Of a stretch of 64,000 nt of DNA, positions 32,574-64,000 are shown piece by piece. The notes under the pieces are model-generated. The model saw only the letters and a program-made list of their open reading frames with translations. It was not told the DNA's origin and did not search any database. Numbering within the stretch: the first letter of the stretch is position 1; each line of letters opens with the position of its first letter. The stretch lies in the NCBI RefSeq assembly GCF_016026235.1, contig NZ_CP065613.1, one strand, 5' to 3'. The stretch comes from Escherichia coli (GTDB lineage Bacteria > Pseudomonadota > Gammaproteobacteria > Enterobacterales > Enterobacteriaceae). The position numbers and the translations under genes were made by a program.

Positions 32574-33869
32574 ATGACACTCACGCTCAATAGACAACTT
32601 CTCTCCTCACGCCAGATTCTGGTGGCCTTTAGCGGCGGGCTTGACTCCACCGTTCTGCTGCATCAGTTGGTGCAGTGGCGGACGGAAAATCCGGGCGTCA
32701 CTCTGCGCGCTATTCATGTGCATCACGGTTTAAGTGCCAATGCCGACGCCTGGGTTATGCATTGCGAGAACATCTGCCAACAGTGGCAGGTGCCGCTGGT
32801 GGTCGAGCGCGTGCAACTTGCGCAAGAAGGACTGGGCATTGAGGCCCAGGCGCGGCAGGCGCGTTATCAGGCATTTGCCCGCACCTTGTTGCCCGGTGAA
32901 GTGCTGGTCACCGCGCAACATCTCGACGATCAATGTGAAACCTTTCTGCTGGCGCTAAAACGCGGTAGCGGCCCTGCCGGGCTTTCGGCTATGGGGGAAG
33001 TCTCGGAGTTTGCCGGAACACGGCTTATCCGCCCGTTGCTTGCCCGCACGCGGGGGGAACTGGAGCAGTGGGCATTGGCGCATGGTTTACGCTGGATTGA
33101 AGACGAAAGTAATCAGGACGACTCATACGATCGTAACTTTCTGCGCCTGCGCGTAGTGCCGTTATTGCAGCAGCGTTGGCCGCATTTTGCGGAAGCAACG
33201 GCCCGCAGCGCCGCACTTTGTGCTGAACAAGAGAGTCTGTTGGATGAACTGCTGGCGGATGATTTAGCACACTGCCAAACGTCGCAGGGGACGCTGCAGA
33301 TTGCGCCAATGCTGGCGATGAGTGATGCCCGCCGCGCGGCGATTATCCGTCGCTGGCTGGCAGGGCAGAATGCACCAATGCCTTCCCGCGACGCGCTGGT
33401 GCGGATCTGGCAGGAAGTGGCGCTGGCGCGGGAAGATGCCTCCCCCTGTTTACGCTTGGGCGCGTTTGAAATCCGCCGCTATCAGTCGCAACTGTGGTGG
33501 ATTAAATCCGTCACCGGGCAAAGTGAAACCATTGTGCCGTGGCAGACGTGGCTACAACCGCTGGAATTACCGGCGGGGCTGGGAAGCGTACAGCTTACTG
33601 CGGGAGGCGATATTCGCCCTCCGCGTGCAGACGAAGCGGTCAGCGTGCGTTTCAAAGCGGCAGGATTGCTGCATATTGTCGGGCGCAACGGCGGACGTAA
33701 GCTGAAGAAAATCTGGCAAGAGTTAGGCGTGCCGCCGTGGCTACGTGACACCACGCCACTGCTGTTTTATGGCGAAACGCTGATTGCGGCGGCAGGGGTA
33801 TTTGTGACGCAAGAAGGTGTGGCTGAAGGTGAGAATGGCATAAGTTTTGTCTGGCAGCGAAACGCTTAG
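32574..33869 (+). CDS. tilS: tRNA(Ile)-lysidine synthetase
   Basis: 431-aa [35 protein letters not shown]...; SGGxDS PP-loop motif. Confidence 0.9.
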
Positions 33870-33896
33870 TTAAGTGAAGGCCGGATATGACGCATT

Positions 33897-34805
<909 letters not shown>

Positions 34806-35356
34806 TCCAGGAGATGCTCCTGCATGGCTTTCAGATATGCATTTTCTGCGCGAAGATAACGCAGCTCATTCTTCATCTCTTCCGGCGTCATGTTTCCCTC
34901 GTTTTCATGGGTATCATCAGAACGGGTCATGCTTTTCTCCTTCCTGCGCCTGATAAAGGCCTCATTACCAGATTTGCGGTAGCCTTTTATCCAGTTTTTA
35001 ACCATGTTGTGGCTGGGAATGTTAAACCGGGCGGCTACCCGGGGTAGAGACTCAGAATGCCCGAGAGCATAAAGAACCACGCAAAGTTTATCTTCAGGAG
35101 AATAGCTACGCTTGTGTCTGCAATCCAGTGCCTGAGGACCGTGAAGAAGAAAAAGATTAATCCAGTGTGAGAGGCTGGTGTGAGAAAGTTGAAAGAGTTT
35201 TGCCGTAGAAATGATGCCTGCATGACCGGCCAGGTAATGATTTACAGCGGCAAGTTTTACTTCAAATGAATGTTTCATAAACTGCACCTTCAGATGTCAG
35301 ATTATGTCCAACATTTGGGGTGCAGTTCATTAAGCGTCGCATCCGGCGAAAGTCAA

Positions 35357-35804: not shown

Positions 35805-35969
35805 ATGCCCTCCTGTCAGCACTCTGACTTAACCGTGGATGCAAGTCTAAGCCTACGAAGATAAACTCTGTTTCGCAAGGTGACTATACCACACTCATTT
35901 CTGCAATATCAGCGCCGCAACTGCACGTATTCCGTTACAATGGCCTCCTGATTCGAAAGGAGTTTTCTT

Positions 35970-36515
35970 ATGGCGCTTAAAGCGACAATTTATAAAGCGA
36001 CGGTTAATGTGGCCGATCTCGACCGCAACCAGTTTCTCGATGCCTCTCTGACGCTGGCGCGCCACCCTTCAGAAACCTAGGAGCGTATGATGCTGCGCTT
36101 GCTGGCGTGGCTGAAATATGCTGATGAACGTCTGCAATTTACCCGTGGTTTGTGTGCCGATGATGAGCCGGAAGCGTGGCTGCGTAACGATCACCTGGGC
36201 ATTGATTTGTGGATTGAGCTGGGGCTGCCGGATGAGCGGCGGATTAAGAAAGCCTGCACCCAGGCCGCAGAAGTGGCGCTGTTTACCTATAATAGTCGGG
36301 CGGCGCAAATCTGGTGGCAGCAAAATCAGAGCAAATGTGTGCAGTTTGCCAATCTTTCCGTCTGGTATCTGGACGATGAACAACTGGCGAAAGTAAGCGC
36401 CTTTGCCGATCGTACCATGACGCTGCAGGCAACGATTCAGGATGGCGTGATCTGGTTATCGGATGATAAGAATAATCTGGAAGTGAACTTAACCGCCTGG
36501 CAACAACCTTCATGA
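35970..36515 (+). pseudogene. yaeQ: yaeQ-family gene interrupted by an in-frame TAG at 36078..36080
   Basis: ATG at 35970 opens [36 protein letters not shown] then TAG in the same frame as the 142-codon ORF 36087..36515 ([22 protein letters not shown]...); total span 546 nt equals a full-length ~181-aa YaeQ. Confidence 0.6.
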
Positions 36516-36934
36516 TTGTGATTTCCCGACATGTTGCTATTCCCGATGGTGAGCTTGAGATCACCGCCATTCGTGCGCAGGGCGCGGGCGGGCAGCATGT
36601 TAATAAGACCTCAACGGCTATTCATCTGCGTTTTGACATTCGGGCGTCCAGCCTGCCAGAGTATTACAAAGAGCGTCTGCTCGCCGCCAGCCATCATTTG
36701 ATCAGCAGTGATGGCGTGATTGTCATTAAGGCACAGGAATACCGCAGTCAGGAACTGAACCGCGAAGCCGCTCTGGCCCGGCTGGTGGCTGTGATTAAAG
36801 AATTAACAACAGAACAAAAAGCCCGACGACCCACGCGGCCCACCCGTGCATCGAAAGAGCGCAGGCTGGCATCGAAAGCACAAAAATCAAGCGTGAAGGC
36901 GATGCGCGGCAAAGTGCGCAGCGGTCGGGAATAA
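36512..36934 (+). CDS. arfB: peptidyl-tRNA hydrolase ArfB (YaeJ), alternative ribosome-rescue factor
   Basis: 140-aa [44 protein letters not shown]...; GGQ motif; basic C-terminal tail. Confidence 0.88.
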
Positions 36935-37733: not shown

Positions 37734-37870
<137 letters not shown>

Positions 37871-37907
37871 CCAACAAAGCGACCCGCCTTGATATAAATC
37901 CCTGGCT

Positions 37908-38735
37908 TCAGGTGCCCAACATACTGTAACTGCGTTTCTGCTTAAACGCAGAGACATCACCAATACGCATATGCATCAGATCGGCAGGGCTAATCCATCC
38001 CGATTGCGCCAGCGTAAGCGGATGCCCGGCTTTGGCAAATGCATCAGTGACAAATTCCGAACAAAACCACGACTTTTTGTCTCCTTCGCCCACACTGCTT
38101 AACTGCGCTTTCGCCAGGCCGCTGACGCACTGTTGGCGAAAATCCTCGGAGAACGGATTCAGTGAGCACATCTGGCGAGTCACCATAAAGGGAATAAATT
38201 CGACAATGCCGCGATAGTTATAACCGCTATCTTTGATTTTATTGGCAAACGCGGTGATATCTGTGGCTTGTTGCGGGGTAAGATCCGGGACTCGTAAGAC
38301 GAAAAGCTTATCACTATGCTTCATCGCTTTTTTAAGGGAAACGATCTGGACGCCAGCGCCTGTCGCTTCTGCAACGTTATTATCACCCAGATAGATTGCA
38401 ACGTGACTCACAGAGGAAGTGCTGAAGACGCGGATTCCAAATGAGGTTACCCCAAGGCTTGAGGAGAACAGCAAATCGCCGGGTTTGAGATCAGGTACCG
38501 TTATTTCTTTTATTGATTGTTCGGTGAAAGAGCTTTGATGCTGGAATTTGACAGCCCATGTTTTTGCCTCGGCATCTACTGCTGTGGCTGATGGGTCTGG
38601 CTGGCTGATATCAACGGTACAAGCCGAAAGTAAAAGAAAGCTGGGGAGAAACAGGCGGCAGTACGCCTTTGGTTTATCCATTTTATACAATCCATGTAAA
38701 AAAAGGGCCCTGAAATTCAGGACCCTTTCTGGCAT
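37908..38735 (-). CDS. yaeF: putative lipoprotein YaeF (NlpC/P60-like)
   Basis: 275-aa ORF; internal MDKPKAYCRLFLPSFLLLSACTV resembles a lipoprotein signal, so the true start may be that Met. Confidence 0.65.
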   Translation of the reverse strand: MPERVLNFRALFLHGLYKMDKPKAYCRLFLPSFLLLSACTVDISQPDPSATAVDAEAKTWAVKFQHQSSFTEQSIKEITVPDLKPGDLLFSSSLGVTSFGIRVFSTSSVSHVAIYLGDNNVAEATGAGVQIVSLKKAMKHSDKLFVLRVPDLTPQQATDITAFANKIKDSGYNYRGIVEFIPFMVTRQMCSLNPFSEDFRQQCVSGLAKAQLSSVGEGDKKSWFCSEFVTDAFAKAGHPLTLAQSGWISPADLMHMRIGDVSAFKQKRSYSMLGT

Positions 38736-58825: not shown

Positions 58826-58902
58826 GGAGCGGTAGTTCAGTCGGTTAGAATACCTGCCTGTCACGCAGGGGGTCGCGGGTTCGAGTCCCGTCCGTTCCGC
58901 CA
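58826..58902 (+). tRNA. aspV: tRNA-Asp (GTC)
   Basis: 77-nt sequence identical to the aspU copy at 50602..50678; lies directly after dnaQ. Confidence 0.95.
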
Positions 58903-59260: not shown

Positions 59261-59845
59261 GTGTATTATTCTCGCTGCTTGCAGGATGTGCCTCTTAATT
59301 CTCCCGTTATACTTGTTCAGTCTGGCAGTCGCGCACCGGAAACCATTATGCAGGAGGAGATGAGAAAATATTATACAGTTGCCACATTTTCTGGCATTCC
59401 TGACAGGCAAAAACCTGTAACTTGTAATAAAGACAAAAACAAAGATGAAAGTCTGGATGTTGTAGATGCCGAAAATATGAACTGGATGCAGGCATTACGT
59501 TTTGTTGCGGCAAAAGGCCATCAGAAAGCGATTATTGTTTTCCAGGATACGTTGCAGACAGGAAAATATGACTCTGGATTGAAATCAATAGTTTGGTCAG
59601 ATTATAAAAATCAAAAATTGACTGACACGATGTCACTGCGTTATTTGGTTCGATTCACGCTGGTGGATGTGGCTACAGGTGAGTGGGCTACCTGGTCGCC
59701 TGTGAATTATGAATCGAAAGTGATTTTTCCGCAGATAGGGAATAAAAATTCTGACAGCCTTGATGTGGCAGAACAGCAGATTTCACAACTTAAGCAGAAA
59801 ACGTACGCAGCAGTGGTTAAAGATCTGGTGAATCGCTATCAGTAG
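59261..59845 (+). CDS. yafT: YafT-like protein body ORF; lipoprotein signal peptide lies upstream in a different frame
   Basis: 194-codon ORF (...[55 protein letters not shown]...); upstream ATG at 59233 encodes [21 protein letters not shown] then TAA at 59296 in a different frame. Internal ATGs at 59348 and 59360, the latter just after AGGAGG. Confidence 0.5.
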
Positions 59846-60186
59846 TAAGGTTTTATACCAGACGTTTTAATGGTACTTAGCAAGAAAGAGCATTTTCTTT
59901 TCTATTTATACTCTGGTTCAAGTCTGCTAATTAATTTTACATATATATTTTTTTAGAAGTAGTAAAAAACTTTACTAAAGTTATTTATTGTTCTCTCAAC
60001 ATATAAGCTGTAGTTCGAGTTTTCGGTTGAACTGTCAAAAATACATCATACACATCTATAAAACAGCAGGTACGGTTAATTAAGAATTTTTATTCGTGAT
60101 TAACCGTACTTTATCATTTTATTTTATAATGTTAAATTGCCTTTTTAAAATATAACAATAATGCAGATGAAAAACTCCCAGGTAAC

Positions 60187-60666
60187 TTAGAAAATCCGTT
60201 CACTCCAAAGGCTGTACGCACTGGTTCCGGCGACGCTGTGCTCCCAGTTAATGCTCTCATAGGTAAATGACACAGACTCTTCCGGCTGTCCTGGGCTGTC
60301 GTTAATGGTATGGGGAACGGTAAGGCCGATGTTTGAGATCCGGGCGTTAGTCAGTTTCACCTTGTAGTACGGTTCATTAACACCAAAGCGGTTGGTGCGA
60401 TAGAATACAAAATCACAGGTCAGACATTCATTCTCCGAAATGGCCTTGCCCAGCAGGGGGGAAGATTTGTCCACCGGTTTCGTGATGGTCAGCTCCTGGT
60501 GGTTGACATTCTGCGCCCGGCTCAGACCATGGGACAGTGACGTCACCATGATCTGATCCTGATGTGCAATCTGGGCTTTGTTACCGATGGACGGCATTGA
60601 CGAGCATCCGGATGAAATCAGCCCCTGAAGTTCTCCGTTCAGTGTCAGATAGACGGGATTTGCCAT
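60187..60666 (-). CDS. hcp: type VI secretion tube protein, Hcp family
   Basis: ORF-track frame 60187..61053 trimmed to ATG (complement 60664..60666) preceded by AAGGAGAATAAC; 159 aa MANPVYLTLNGELQGLISSGCSSMPSIGNKAQIAHQDQIMVTSLSHGL...YKVKLTNARISNIG...FTYESINWEHSVAGTSAYSLWSERIF, Hcp-like length and N/C-terminal pattern. Confidence 0.65.
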   Translation of the reverse strand: MANPVYLTLNGELQGLISSGCSSMPSIGNKAQIAHQDQIMVTSLSHGLSRAQNVNHQELTITKPVDKSSPLLGKAISENECLTCDFVFYRTNRFGVNEPYYKVKLTNARISNIGLTVPHTINDSPGQPEESVSFTYESINWEHSVAGTSAYSLWSERIF

Positions 60667-60683
60667 TGTTATTCTCCTTAAAC

Positions 60684-62042
60684 TCAATGGGTCGGAGGGA
60701 CTGGCACGGTGCTGTTGTCCGTTGCCATATCCTGTCCGGTATTTTTCAGCAACAGCCAGCGGCTTAACAGCCCATCCAGCCGTTGGTTGATCTCTTTTGC
60801 TAGCGCCTGTGTGTCCTGATTCTGCGTGCGGGTCTCCTGGTACTGCGTCAGCAGGTACTCCAGTGGAGTTTCCTGATTCAGTAACCGTTCGGCCTGCCAG
60901 GTCACCGTTTTGATATACGAGAGGGTGAAACCCTGTTTCTCCGTCTCCTTTTTCATCATCAGATCCGCAAAATCCCGCAAATTCTGCCGCGCCTGTTGCC
61001 AGCCCTTCATCTGCGGACTGGCTTGCGCCCGGTTTCTCAGCGTGGTGCTCCACATCCGGCTGGCTTCCTGCTGTTGCAGGCTTTCCGGCCAGAGGGTGTC
61101 TGCGGTGCGCATCATCTGCATTCCGGTTTCCAGCGGCTGTAGCGGTGGGGTATCCAGAAGCTGTTGCAGGTACTGTTCATATTCTTTCAGTACCGGTGAT
61201 GCCAGCCAGACGGTGGCGGCTCCCTGTGCGGTATCCCTGACCTGCGTAAGCTGCCGCTGCATCGGGTACGCCTGCCACCACCAGAGTGCAGCGGCGATAA
61301 CGGCAGTACAGGCGGCACCGGCAACAAAACCTTTTACAGTGCTGCCCTGTCTAACGTTGTCGGCGTTATTTGCCACACCGCGCACCTCCACCCGCATTTC
61401 CGGCAGGTCGGGCAGGGGAGGCACGGCTTCCGCTGTGGTGGAAGCCGTGCTTTCCGGCGCATAGACCAGCGTCCGGACCGTGGTCTGTGCCGCCGTATCA
61501 GTACGGTTTCCGGGCTGCGGTTCAAACCGCTTGCGTGTGTTCTGCACAAAATAAAGCAGGTTTTCCACGCGCGGCTGGCGCTTCAGTTCCACCTGCTGGA
61601 GTTTGTCACAGATAAGCTGTAAAGCCCGTTCCGTGCGGTAGAGCAACGGCAGATCATTTTCGGAAAAGGACACCTGCTGGCGCAGGATATTCCCGGTGCG
61701 GGTATTGAACCAGTCCAGCATCTCAGTCCGCGCCGGGCCACCCTGCGGCCAGAATTTATCCCATTCGTGGTTGATCATCGCTGCCAGCAGTTCCGCGCCT
61801 TCGCAGAACCCTGCCAGTCCCTGATTACGGGTACGCGCCAGTGTATAGTAGGTGGCGGTATGCAAATCCACCCCGTTGGCCTTAAAAATCGACAGCGCCA
61901 GCGATTCCACCAGTTTCCAGTTCAGCTCCGGCTGTGACGGGTGATTAGCCTTGTTAATTTCTTCGCGGATGGCGCTGAACTCCGGCAGGGCGCGCGGATC
62001 GCTGCCGGTAACGATAGTTTGAGTCAGTGCGTTGTTGTTCAT
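60684..62042 (-). CDS. T6SS-associated ImpA-N-domain protein (TssA-family, VasL/TagA-like) with central transmembrane segment
   Basis: ORF-track frame 60684..62183 trimmed to ATG at 62042 (MNNNALTQTIVTGSDPRALPEFSAIREEINKANHPSQPELNWKLVESLALSIFKANGVDLHTATYYTLARTRNQGLAGFCEGAELLAAMINHEWDKFWP...); hydrophobic stretch GFVAGAACTAVIAAALWWW; 10 bp after the tssM stop, 17 bp before hcp. Confidence 0.55.
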   Translation of the reverse strand: MNNNALTQTIVTGSDPRALPEFSAIREEINKANHPSQPELNWKLVESLALSIFKANGVDLHTATYYTLARTRNQGLAGFCEGAELLAAMINHEWDKFWPQGGPARTEMLDWFNTRTGNILRQQVSFSENDLPLLYRTERALQLICDKLQQVELKRQPRVENLLYFVQNTRKRFEPQPGNRTDTAAQTTVRTLVYAPESTASTTAEAVPPLPDLPEMRVEVRGVANNADNVRQGSTVKGFVAGAACTAVIAAALWWWQAYPMQRQLTQVRDTAQGAATVWLASPVLKEYEQYLQQLLDTPPLQPLETGMQMMRTADTLWPESLQQQEASRMWSTTLRNRAQASPQMKGWQQARQNLRDFADLMMKKETEKQGFTLSYIKTVTWQAERLLNQETPLEYLLTQYQETRTQNQDTQALAKEINQRLDGLLSRWLLLKNTGQDMATDNSTVPVPPTH

Positions 62043-62052
62043 CACTATCCCC

Positions 62053-64000
62053 TTAATACAATGTATCCGGTAAACGGAACTGGCTGAACAGACCGCCGGT
62101 GAACGGGTTATCTTCGGTATCCACATGCACCCGGTAAACCATCGCGCCGCCGTCCACGTTAAAGCGCACGTTAAAGGTGTCACTGGTTACGTTGGTCAAC
62201 TGGCCCGCGCCGAACAGGCGGAACTGCGCCCACGGTCCACTGAACGCGATACTGCGCGGTGCTCCGCCGCTGGTGCCAATCAGCGTCAGCTTGCTTTCAT
62301 TGCCTTCACGCATGTTGTTCGGCCAGACCAGATGGGCGGTATAGTTGCGTCCCTGGCTGTAGTCCACTAACTGGCCGTCCAGGTTAAGTACGCTGCGCCG
62401 CTTATTGCCGGAAAGCGATACGGTTTCCACGGCAAACTGTGCGCCCAGTCCGTTCTGCTGGCTAAAGAAGATGTCGCGGATTTTCTGTGCGGTATCCAGT
62501 TGTTGCCGGATATCTTCACGGATCAGCACTCTGCCGTCGTCGCCAAAGGTCAGATCGTTTTCCAGGAACAGTCGCAGGTTGTCCCTGTAGAACGAGTCCA
62601 GAATGCCATCCGGTTTAAAGAAGCGCTCAAACGCATCCAGTGAGGCATCCTGTGGGGCGCGTGGATTAAACGGATAGTTACCGGCAAGCTGTTCGTTGAA
62701 GGGTTTCACCACATTGTCGCGCCAGTCCACTTCCATGTAATGAACGGCTTCCACCATCACTACATGCCAGGCCTGATCCGCCAGCTTGCCCACCCAGCGG
62801 TTAAGAGGCGCAGGCAGGGTTTTTGCCATCTGACGGGTGGCGAAGATTGGATCGCTGCTGTTTTGATCCAGCCGTAGCTGTACTGCTTTCAGCGCCGATT
62901 TCCCAGACACTGGCGAGTTCTGAATCGCCAGCAGGTAACGGTGCAGCTCGGTCAGTTGCTGGTACACGGCCTGTAGCGTACTCGCCTTGTCCTTTTGCTC
63001 CTCCAGTGCGCTATTTTCCGGCGCGAGCTCATGTCCCAGCCGGGATAACAGGCGGTAATCCATCTCATTTATCGCCGCTTCCCTCGCCTTATCATCCAGT
63101 TTGCCGGAGAGCGTCAGCGCGTGTGTATTATCGCGCAGCGCCGTCAGCGCACGCTGGAATGGCTGATCGCCGCTGATAATCTGCTCCAGCGCGTCGGTCA
63201 GCACCGGCATGGCCTCATAGTCACGGACGTTGAGATTATCCATTCCGGCACGCCATGTAGCGGTATAGTCACTGAGGTACTGTTCAGTGATATGGCGCTG
63301 GATCTCTTCACGGTCGGCCTCGCTGTAGGCGACGCTTTGCGTCAGGTTCAGCACCCACGAATCCAGCGCGGTCAACTCAACGAGACCGTCGTGTTGTTTG
63401 ATAAAATAGCTTTGCAGGCCATAGCGGGTGAGAAACTGCGGGATCACCAGTTTTTCATCATTACCGGCGACGAACACGTTGTCGAAGGTGGGACCAACCT
63501 GGTCGCGCAAATTCAAATCGGCGGGCAACACGCTTAATGCTTTGGTGCGCAGGGTCTGGTAGACACGCTGGTATATCGGCAGTTTGCTCAGTTCATGTTG
63601 CGCATTAATGACCGCTTTATCATAGGGTGTCCAGCGGCTGATGGCGTCGCTGTCGCCGCTCTGGCGCTGCGCGTGCCAGTCGGTGTGTTCCAGCGCATAG
63701 TCCAGATGTGCCATCAGTTGCGCCTGAATATCACGCTGGCCGTGAAATTCATTGCTCCAGCGCCGCGCCATGTACTGTTTTACCGCCTCGTTGTTGCGCC
63801 CACTTTTGTCTTCCATCATGCGCACTACGCGCAGCACGGCGAGTTTTTCTTCACTCTCAGGCGGGGCATTGTTCAGATCCCGGATCAGGCCGTTCATTAA
63901 CGAGGGGAGATAACGCTGCTCAAGAAGCTGAATGTAGGTTTGTTCCACATATGACCCTACGCGGACGCCCTGGTACAATCCCATATCCGCCAGAAAACCG
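62053..64000 (-). CDS. tssM: type VI secretion membrane protein TssM (IcmF-like), C-terminal part; gene continues beyond window end
   Basis: More than 640 codons open on the minus strand from the window edge to the stop at 62053; size, the downstream ImpA-like and Hcp genes, and recalled IcmF C-terminal character support TssM; not verified by search. Confidence 0.55.
   Translation of the reverse strand, partial: GFLADMGLYQGVRVGSYVEQTYIQLLEQRYLPSLMNGLIRDLNNAPPESEEKLAVLRVVRMMEDKSGRNNEAVKQYMARRWSNEFHGQRDIQAQLMAHLDYALEHTDWHAQRQSGDSDAISRWTPYDKAVINAQHELSKLPIYQRVYQTLRTKALSVLPADLNLRDQVGPTFDNVFVAGNDEKLVIPQFLTRYGLQSYFIKQHDGLVELTALDSWVLNLTQSVAYSEADREEIQRHITEQYLSDYTATWRAGMDNLNVRDYEAMPVLTDALEQIISGDQPFQRALTALRDNTHALTLSGKLDDKAREAAINEMDYRLLSRLGHELAPENSALEEQKDKASTLQAVYQQLTELHRYLLAIQNSPVSGKSALKAVQLRLDQNSSDPIFATRQMAKTLPAPLNRWVGKLADQAWHVVMVEAVHYMEVDWRDNVVKPFNEQLAGNYPFNPRAPQDASLDAFERFFKPDGILDSFYRDNLRLFLENDLTFGDDGRVLIREDIRQQLDTAQKIRDIFFSQQNGLGAQFAVETVSLSGNKRRSVLNLDGQLVDYSQGRNYTAHLVWPNNMREGNESKLTLIGTSGGAPRSIAFSGPWAQFRLFGAGQLTNVTSDTFNVRFNVDGGAMVYRVHVDTEDNPFTGGLFSQFRLPDTLY

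Follow-up and report, generated by a model that had tools for sequence, protein, structure and literature searches.

An amber codon at a former Dcm site interrupts yaeQ in Escherichia coli: a probable recurrent product of cytosine deamination

The amber hotspots of lacI at CCAGG sites are the textbook precedent for mutation by deamination of 5-methylcytosine. These lacI hotspots at CCAGG sites were reportedly described by Coulondre and Miller in 1978, and Cherry is said to have described methylation-induced hypermutation in natural populations in 2018 (J Bacteriol). The CCWGG motif is an established hotspot of G:C to A:T changes at the methylated base, which are countered by Vsr very-short-patch repair (PMC13250602, PMC10710837, PMC2715241). 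The yaeQ locus analysed here has several features in common with the lacI hotspots, namely the change from CCAGG to CTAGG, the conversion of a CAG glutamine codon into an amber codon, the position at the inner C of a Dcm site, and recurrence at that base. The lacI hotspots were observed under laboratory selection, whereas the yaeQ change is a natural polymorphism across wild lineages, and its dependence on dcm and vsr is proposed by analogy.

YaeQ belongs to the PD-(D/E)XK superfamily and consists of one compact domain (PMC3424549). Reports of rfaH suppression by YaeQ have been disputed; synteny points to a connection with translation (PMC9252766, PMC3424549). The copy described here agrees with the YaeQ family (PF07152, COG4681; PD-(D/E)XK-like fold; PDB 3C0U, 2G3W, 7TCB, 2OT9) in sequence and in its operon-like place upstream of arfB, and differs by a stop at codon 37, with which the full domain cannot be made. 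It also resembles the young single-hit pseudogenes of E. coli and Shigella, in which one point mutation interrupts an otherwise intact, dispensable gene while the neighbours and synteny are unchanged. In contrast to these, the surrounding DNA is not generally decaying, and the lesion does not mark a lineage but is a recurrent hotspot allele.

The interrupted yaeQ frame and its chromosomal surroundings

The window, a stretch of 64,000 nucleotides of E. coli DNA (contig NZ_CP065613.1), contains yaeQ in two pieces. A sequence-only reading had proposed that a 36-codon frame opened by the ATG at 35970 ends at TAG 36078..36080, that a 142-codon ORF continues in the same frame from 36087, and that the two pieces together have the length of an intact YaeQ-family protein. 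All three statements hold. The features of the frame are as follows.

35970..36515, plus strand: yaeQ, interrupted (pseudogene), a 181-codon frame with an internal TAG as codon 37
35970..36080, plus strand: N-terminal fragment ORF, 36 codons and the TAG, comprising strands b1 and b2 and the residues H32-P33-S34-E35
36078..36080, plus strand: premature amber stop TAG, created by a change at 36078 from the ancestral C of CAG (Gln37)
36087..36515, plus strand: downstream ORF, 142 codons from ATG 36087 or 141 from ATG 36090, beginning inside helix a1

The frame ends at TGA 36513-36515, as read from the sequence, and 36 codons, the stop, two codons and 142 codons add up to 181, the length of intact YaeQ. 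The restored protein matches the Pfam family PF07152 (YaeQ) with 239.3 bits over profile positions 1-172 of 173. Each piece matches the same profile separately, the N-terminal one with 55.1 bits (positions 1-36) and the C-terminal one with 164.5 bits (positions 40-172), the gathering score of the family being 25 bits. The restored protein does not differ from E. coli YaeQ (WP_001185290; crystal structure 3C0U). The locus is a member of PF07152 by descent, with the domain frame broken at codon 37, and is a pseudogene. A chance pattern of open reading frames was ruled out: one base interrupts a gene which, with CAG at this codon, is full-length in about 5,423 complete E. coli genomes.

The chromosomal surroundings are those of an ordinary strain. 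The gene order is standard (ldcC-yaeR-tilS / rof-yaeP / yaeQ-arfB-nlpE / yaeF-proS), and alignment with E. coli O8:H8 16F5M1D1 shows collinearity over the whole window at about 99% identity. About 45 of the approximately 50 reference genes checked are gap-free and intact, and yaeQ is the sole cleanly aligned gene with an internal stop. Given this identity and the integrity of nearly all genes, the window represents an ordinary E. coli chromosome that is not broadly decaying. Genome decay of the Shigella type had been suspected from an insertion sequence next to tilS; this was rejected, since the element is IS1397 and nearly all genes are intact. The element, the only insertion sequence in the window, comprises the following features.

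33896-35327: IS1397 (IS3 family), located between the convergent genes tilS and rof, with a 3-bp flank overlap (target duplication)
34757-35287, minus strand: IS1397 orfA
33930-34652, minus strand: IS1397 orfB

It shares 99.0-99.7% identity with annotated copies of IS1397, and the same insertion is found in UGFA01000002.1 (retrieved as L020/L068).

Several smaller differences from the reference were observed elsewhere in the window. The yaeF gene (37858-38681, minus strand) has a 1-nt deletion after gene nucleotide 741, which gives a protein of 257 instead of 274 aa with an altered C-terminus; this frameshift is also present in L020 and could be either a real second lesion or an indel error. 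In tilS, a 1-nt insertion 15 nt before the stop (33855-33873) changes the last four residues and gives 431 instead of 432 aa. The C-terminus of TilS is variable, with 432- and 437-aa versions in other strains. No yaeI gene, which encodes a phosphodiesterase and has about 813 bp in the reference, lies between yaeH and dapD; the interval is occupied by an unrelated sequence of 128 nt (5468-5595). In 59300-64000, downstream of tRNA-Asp (aspV, 58826-58902), only 77-86% similarity to the reference is retained, or none. This region resembles a strain-specific island at a tRNA gene used for integration, where the reference has a type VI secretion cluster.

The base change at position 36078

Matches that cover 80% or more of the region 35900-36600 of the window are present in 5,417 of the 5,426 complete E. 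coli genomes. No genome reaches 100%, and the best ones differ by one base. In the comparison with NZ_CP027355, the only difference over 701 nt is T36078 here versus C there, where codon 37 is CAG (Gln). The window differs from locus L001 at two sites, one of which is 36078. Codon 37 is CAG in all complete genomes checked, and no orthologue with a natural start at the position of 36087 was found. Two 33-nt exact-match tests, which covered both local haplotypes around codon 37, each gave no TAG37 match at 99% or more among 5,423 complete E. coli genomes. As yaeQ is otherwise identical to the nearest CAG allele, the mutation appears to be recent, with no secondary decay. We therefore regard the stop as very probably a real, recent, single-hit nonsense mutation that has turned yaeQ into an ordinary pseudogene.

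The sequence-only reading had left the choice between a nonsense mutation and a sequencing error. The first part of this claim is supported by CAG in other strains and by TAG in many independent assemblies. The second would imply that the strain truly carries CAG and that T36078 is a consensus miscall, perhaps from a methylated base, which we consider quite improbable. Nanopore basecalling is known to be error-prone at methylated motifs (PMC11610603), and 36077-36081 is a Dcm motif. Error-prone assemblies do miscall the codon-37 motif, and the two single-base indels in the neighbouring genes yaeF and tilS could be assembly noise. The miscalls were traced in four assemblies with many split genes (L003, L008, L066 and L067), where they fall at the window equivalent of 36075-36083. 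In L008, 8 of 10 mismatches lie in or adjoin CCWGG, a motif that accounts for only about 1.7% of the sequence; for L067 the corresponding figures are 5 of 9 among the mismatches and 6 of 16 among the indel columns. However, the signature of these artefacts is different: they change CCWGG to CCGGG or introduce an indel, and never produce CTAGG, which argues that the clean C to T change in the window is not an artefact of this type. In addition, the same TAG is found in many independent assemblies and projects, including two complete chromosomes, on nine backgrounds, and the window is otherwise clean, with about 45 genes gap-free and intact. A real mutation is thus the preferred reading of T36078.

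The clustering of miscalls at CCWGG lends indirect support to methylation of the codon-37 site in vivo in several other strains. Dcm-motif miscalls (CCGGG and indels) also yield spurious 39-aa and 142-aa yaeQ proteins in public databases. The difference in signature is of use for quality control, since true deamination (CTWGG) can be told apart from the basecalling artefact (CCGGG or indel). In a set of loci of metagenome and SRA-derived origin (L005-L012), contigs end at the window equivalent of 36085-36087, 0-2 nt from ATG 36087. These contig starts adjoin the polymorphic sites 36078 and 36086, which suggests that assembly graphs break there.

Recurrence of the stop and the Dcm context of nonsense mutations

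Records of the exact 36-aa fragment come from 193 contigs, and TAG was found at codon 37 in all ten retrieved long-contig loci that carry it. The carriers include draft, complete and metagenome assemblies, among them the two complete chromosomes CP026803.1 and UGFA01000002.1. The latter (L020, assembly GCA_900449985.1) shows no difference from the window across the locus, shares its IS1397 insertion, and may be the same strain. Counts of the 141/142-aa product (up to 729 contigs) were rejected as a measure of TAG37 frequency, since this product is a catch-all for upstream lesions and contig ends; it also results from a Q21 stop, start loss and indels.

Over 1,578 bp from rof to arfB, the TAG37 alleles represent at least nine backgrounds that differ at 9-48 sites. 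In two comparisons, of L015 (TAG) with the complete genome of SK1144 (CAG) and of L016 (TAG) with that of 13P484A (CAG), the codon-37 base is the sole difference over the 1,578 bp. The many backgrounds, together with CAG neighbours only one base away, indicate that TAG37 arose independently several times.

The recurrent base lies in one of three Dcm sites of yaeQ that are relevant to nonsense mutation.

36077..36081, plus strand: former Dcm site that reads CTAGG in the window and CCAGG in other strains; the inner C, the target of Dcm, corresponds to 36078
36260..36264, plus strand: second Dcm site CCAGG, intact; its inner C (36261) is the first base of CAG codon 98, a sister amber hotspot
36496..36500, plus strand: third Dcm site CCTGG, intact; a minus-strand deamination (G to A at 36499) would change TGG (W177) to TAG

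At 36078 the ancestral motif is CCWGG, the inner C is the base that was hit, and the change is C to T giving CTWGG, all of which are expected of a Dcm hotspot. We infer that the CCAGG at 36077-36081 is methylated in the window strain. In the proposed mechanism, Dcm would methylate the inner C of the ancestral CCAGG, and hydrolytic deamination of the 5-methylcytosine at 36078 would yield thymine in a T:G mismatch. If Vsr repair misses this mismatch, CTAGG would be fixed and CAG (Gln37) would become the amber codon TAG. At such a hotspot, the same TAG37 allele would arise repeatedly and independently, and would stay rare and young. We consider it highly likely that yaeQ was knocked out by one spontaneous C to T change in the Dcm context, and that TAG37 is a recurrent hotspot allele, its recurrence being explained by the site being a Dcm mutational hotspot.

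The distribution of stops along yaeQ was compared between routes. The gene has 30 single-transition routes to a stop at 21 codons, of which three are on Dcm-methylated positions (Q37, Q98 and W177). The 97-aa fragment expected from the Q98 stop was found on 148 contigs. All nine retrieved loci with the Q98 amber read CTAGG, on nine different backgrounds, in agreement with the predicted recurrence. At W177, all three true stops are TAG and none is TGA, as predicted for the Dcm route, the numbers being small. At the non-Dcm tryptophan codons W47, W70 and W81, the ratio of TAG to TGA is 5:6. The frequencies below count those collection blocks in which the longest carrier contig has a length of 20 kb or more.

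Q37, Dcm route: 51 blocks
Q98, Dcm route: 79 blocks
W177 (one haplotype only), Dcm route (TAG): 18 blocks
W47, no Dcm route: 9 blocks
Q56, no Dcm route: 10 blocks
W70, no Dcm route: 9 blocks
W81, no Dcm route: 6 blocks
Q120, no Dcm route: 2 blocks

Per route, the Dcm routes are approximately 10-fold more frequent than the controls (five control sites, eight routes), a descriptive figure that is confounded by clonal sampling and contig-end truncations. Many of the control places are contig-end truncations, and the retrieved Q37 (10/10) and Q98 (9/9) loci are true stops.

These figures bear on a second reading, in which the change is an ordinary replication-error transition, its Dcm position is coincidental, and its recurrence reflects the dispensability of yaeQ. 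Non-Dcm alleles (Q21, W47, Q56, W70, W81, Q120 and start loss) do occur on several backgrounds, and a window-wide test for Dcm enrichment was negative: transitions relative to a genome of about 1% divergence amounted to 6/324 for Dcm versus 449/29,439, with a ratio of 1.2 and no significant excess (p = 0.64). At this divergence, old selected polymorphism dominates, and we therefore treat the window-wide test as uninformative; it lends no support to an excess at Dcm positions. Against replication error, only three of the 30 routes are Dcm routes, yet those three are the most frequent, with the approximately 10-fold excess per route, and W177 shows only the Dcm route (TAG). We therefore hold an ordinary replication error to be unlikely to the same degree as a miscall.

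A third reading attributes the recurrence to positive selection for yaeQ loss, that is, to adaptive convergent inactivation rather than mutation bias. It is consistent with the many different yaeQ loss-of-function alleles in public assemblies, but TAG37 is absent from the approximately 5,423 complete genomes, and the tested TAG alleles are one base from the nearest CAG allele over 1,578 bp, so that no expanded clade is seen. Moreover, the distribution of stop sites follows the methylation context and not the place in the protein. Adaptive inactivation thus appears very unlikely, and recurrent deamination at the Dcm site remains the preferred explanation. The absence of TAG37 from these genomes despite its recurrent origin fits weak purifying selection. 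Vsr-stimulated reversion of CTAGG to CCAGG may, speculatively, be a further cause of its rarity (PMC2715241).

Loss of a Dcm site by transitions was also observed at another position of the gene in a natural lineage. In the B2-like yaeQ alleles (L014, L015, L017, L019 and L021), the CCTGG at codon 76 reads TTTGG (window equivalent 36194-36195), both C having changed to T. Dcm deamination itself is textbook knowledge. The yaeQ hotspot pair Q37/Q98 together with W177 appears to be undescribed, as no description was found among the best full-text literature matches for YaeQ.

Consequences for YaeQ and arfB

The part of YaeQ upstream of the stop is the most conserved one. When YaeQ is aligned with enterobacterial homologues and with the three further family members of known structure (31-41% identity), residues 1-36 contain 10 of the 31 invariant columns, including H32-P33-S34-E35 directly before the stop. 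A single-sequence AlphaFold model was unusable (pLDDT 39), and an alignment-based model was used instead (pLDDT 85.6; TM 0.91 to PDB 3C0U). In this model, strands b1 (residues 6-16) and b2 (21-31) and the HPSE loop precede residue 37, and helix a1 spans residues 37-50. The expectation of the sequence-only reading that a restart at 36087 would cost the protein its conserved N-terminal segment is borne out by these data. A product starting at M40 or M41 would have neither the two core strands nor HPSE, and for this reason YaeQ function is most likely lost in the window strain.

A stop codon with close ATG codons and an upstream Shine-Dalgarno-like sequence is an arrangement that favours translational restart. 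Such an arrangement is present here, with two features relevant to the translation of the downstream genes.

36079..36083, plus strand: Shine-Dalgarno-like AGGAG overlapping the stop, also present in the wild type as CAGGAG; a function in restart is putative
36512..36515, plus strand: ATGA overlap of the arfB start and the yaeQ stop, a putative site of translational coupling

The adjacent codons ATG-ATG (36087 and 36090) lie 6-9 nt downstream of the TAG, and AGGAG lies 3 nt before the first and 6 nt before the second. Gene callers choose ATG 36090 in TAG-bearing loci. The AGGAG and the ATG codons are part of the ordinary wild-type coding sequence (Q-E-R-M-M), and the Shine-Dalgarno core is unchanged by the mutation. 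The locus thus shares with known cases of termination-reinitiation, such as the lacI and T4 rIIB restarts, the ATG codons 6-9 nt after the stop and the preceding AGGAG, and differs from them in that these elements are not an evolved restart signal and are recognized here from the sequence. RNA folding around the restart site was unremarkable for both alleles (z about -0.9), and a scan of the yaeQ-arfB-nlpE unit for promoters and terminators gave nothing decisive.

The location of yaeQ directly upstream of arfB (yaeJ) is conserved in enterobacterial synteny (PMC9252766) and is found here as well, with the overlap of the two genes. The arfB gene (36512-36934) is intact and has no obvious Shine-Dalgarno sequence of its own. 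With the AGGAG that overlaps the stop as an aid, ribosomes that end at the TAG would probably start again at one of the two codons, ATG 36087 or ATG 36090. Translation of the remaining frame would then continue, Rho-dependent polarity would be limited, and arfB would stay coupled. From the arrangement of these signals, reinitiation after TAG37 with kept arfB coupling may occur.

The same arrangement makes a second polypeptide plausible. In a fourth reading the gene is still functional, either as a split protein of 36 and 141 aa or through an amber suppressor tRNA. A suppressor of the supE type (glnV) inserts glutamine at UAG, and glutamine at this codon would restore the native YaeQ sequence. 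On the other hand, the split form is kept in no complete genome, and the break parts the two core strands and HPSE from the rest of a compact single domain. A search for an amber suppressor tRNA (CUA anticodon), which the sequence-only reading had suggested, was confined to the window; none was found among its four tRNAs, which are ordinary (Ile-GAT, Ala-TGC and two Asp-GTC). We consider retained function exceedingly improbable, and loss of YaeQ remains the favoured outcome.

A more elaborate role may be imagined for the Dcm sites at codons 37 and 98, that of a reversible switch. Deamination of 5-methylcytosine would turn yaeQ off at a raised rate, Vsr-stimulated reversion of CTAGG to CCAGG would turn it on, and reinitiation aided by the Shine-Dalgarno-like sequence would keep arfB expressed while yaeQ is off. 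This is a highly doubtful scenario; if true, yaeQ would be a contingency-like locus built on a methylation site instead of a repeat tract.

For annotation, the 36-aa ORF and the 141/142-aa ORF should become one entry that is marked as a yaeQ pseudogene, and not be listed as two proteins; public databases contain hundreds of such yaeQ fragment calls. In population genomics, Dcm-driven homoplasy of this kind can mimic convergent selection in genome-wide association studies or distort SNP phylogenies. The locus provides a natural example in which one Dcm site yields the same loss-of-function allele repeatedly, and a mutational explanation is enough here. The repeated inactivation of yaeQ shows that many wild lineages of E. 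coli can do without this gene.
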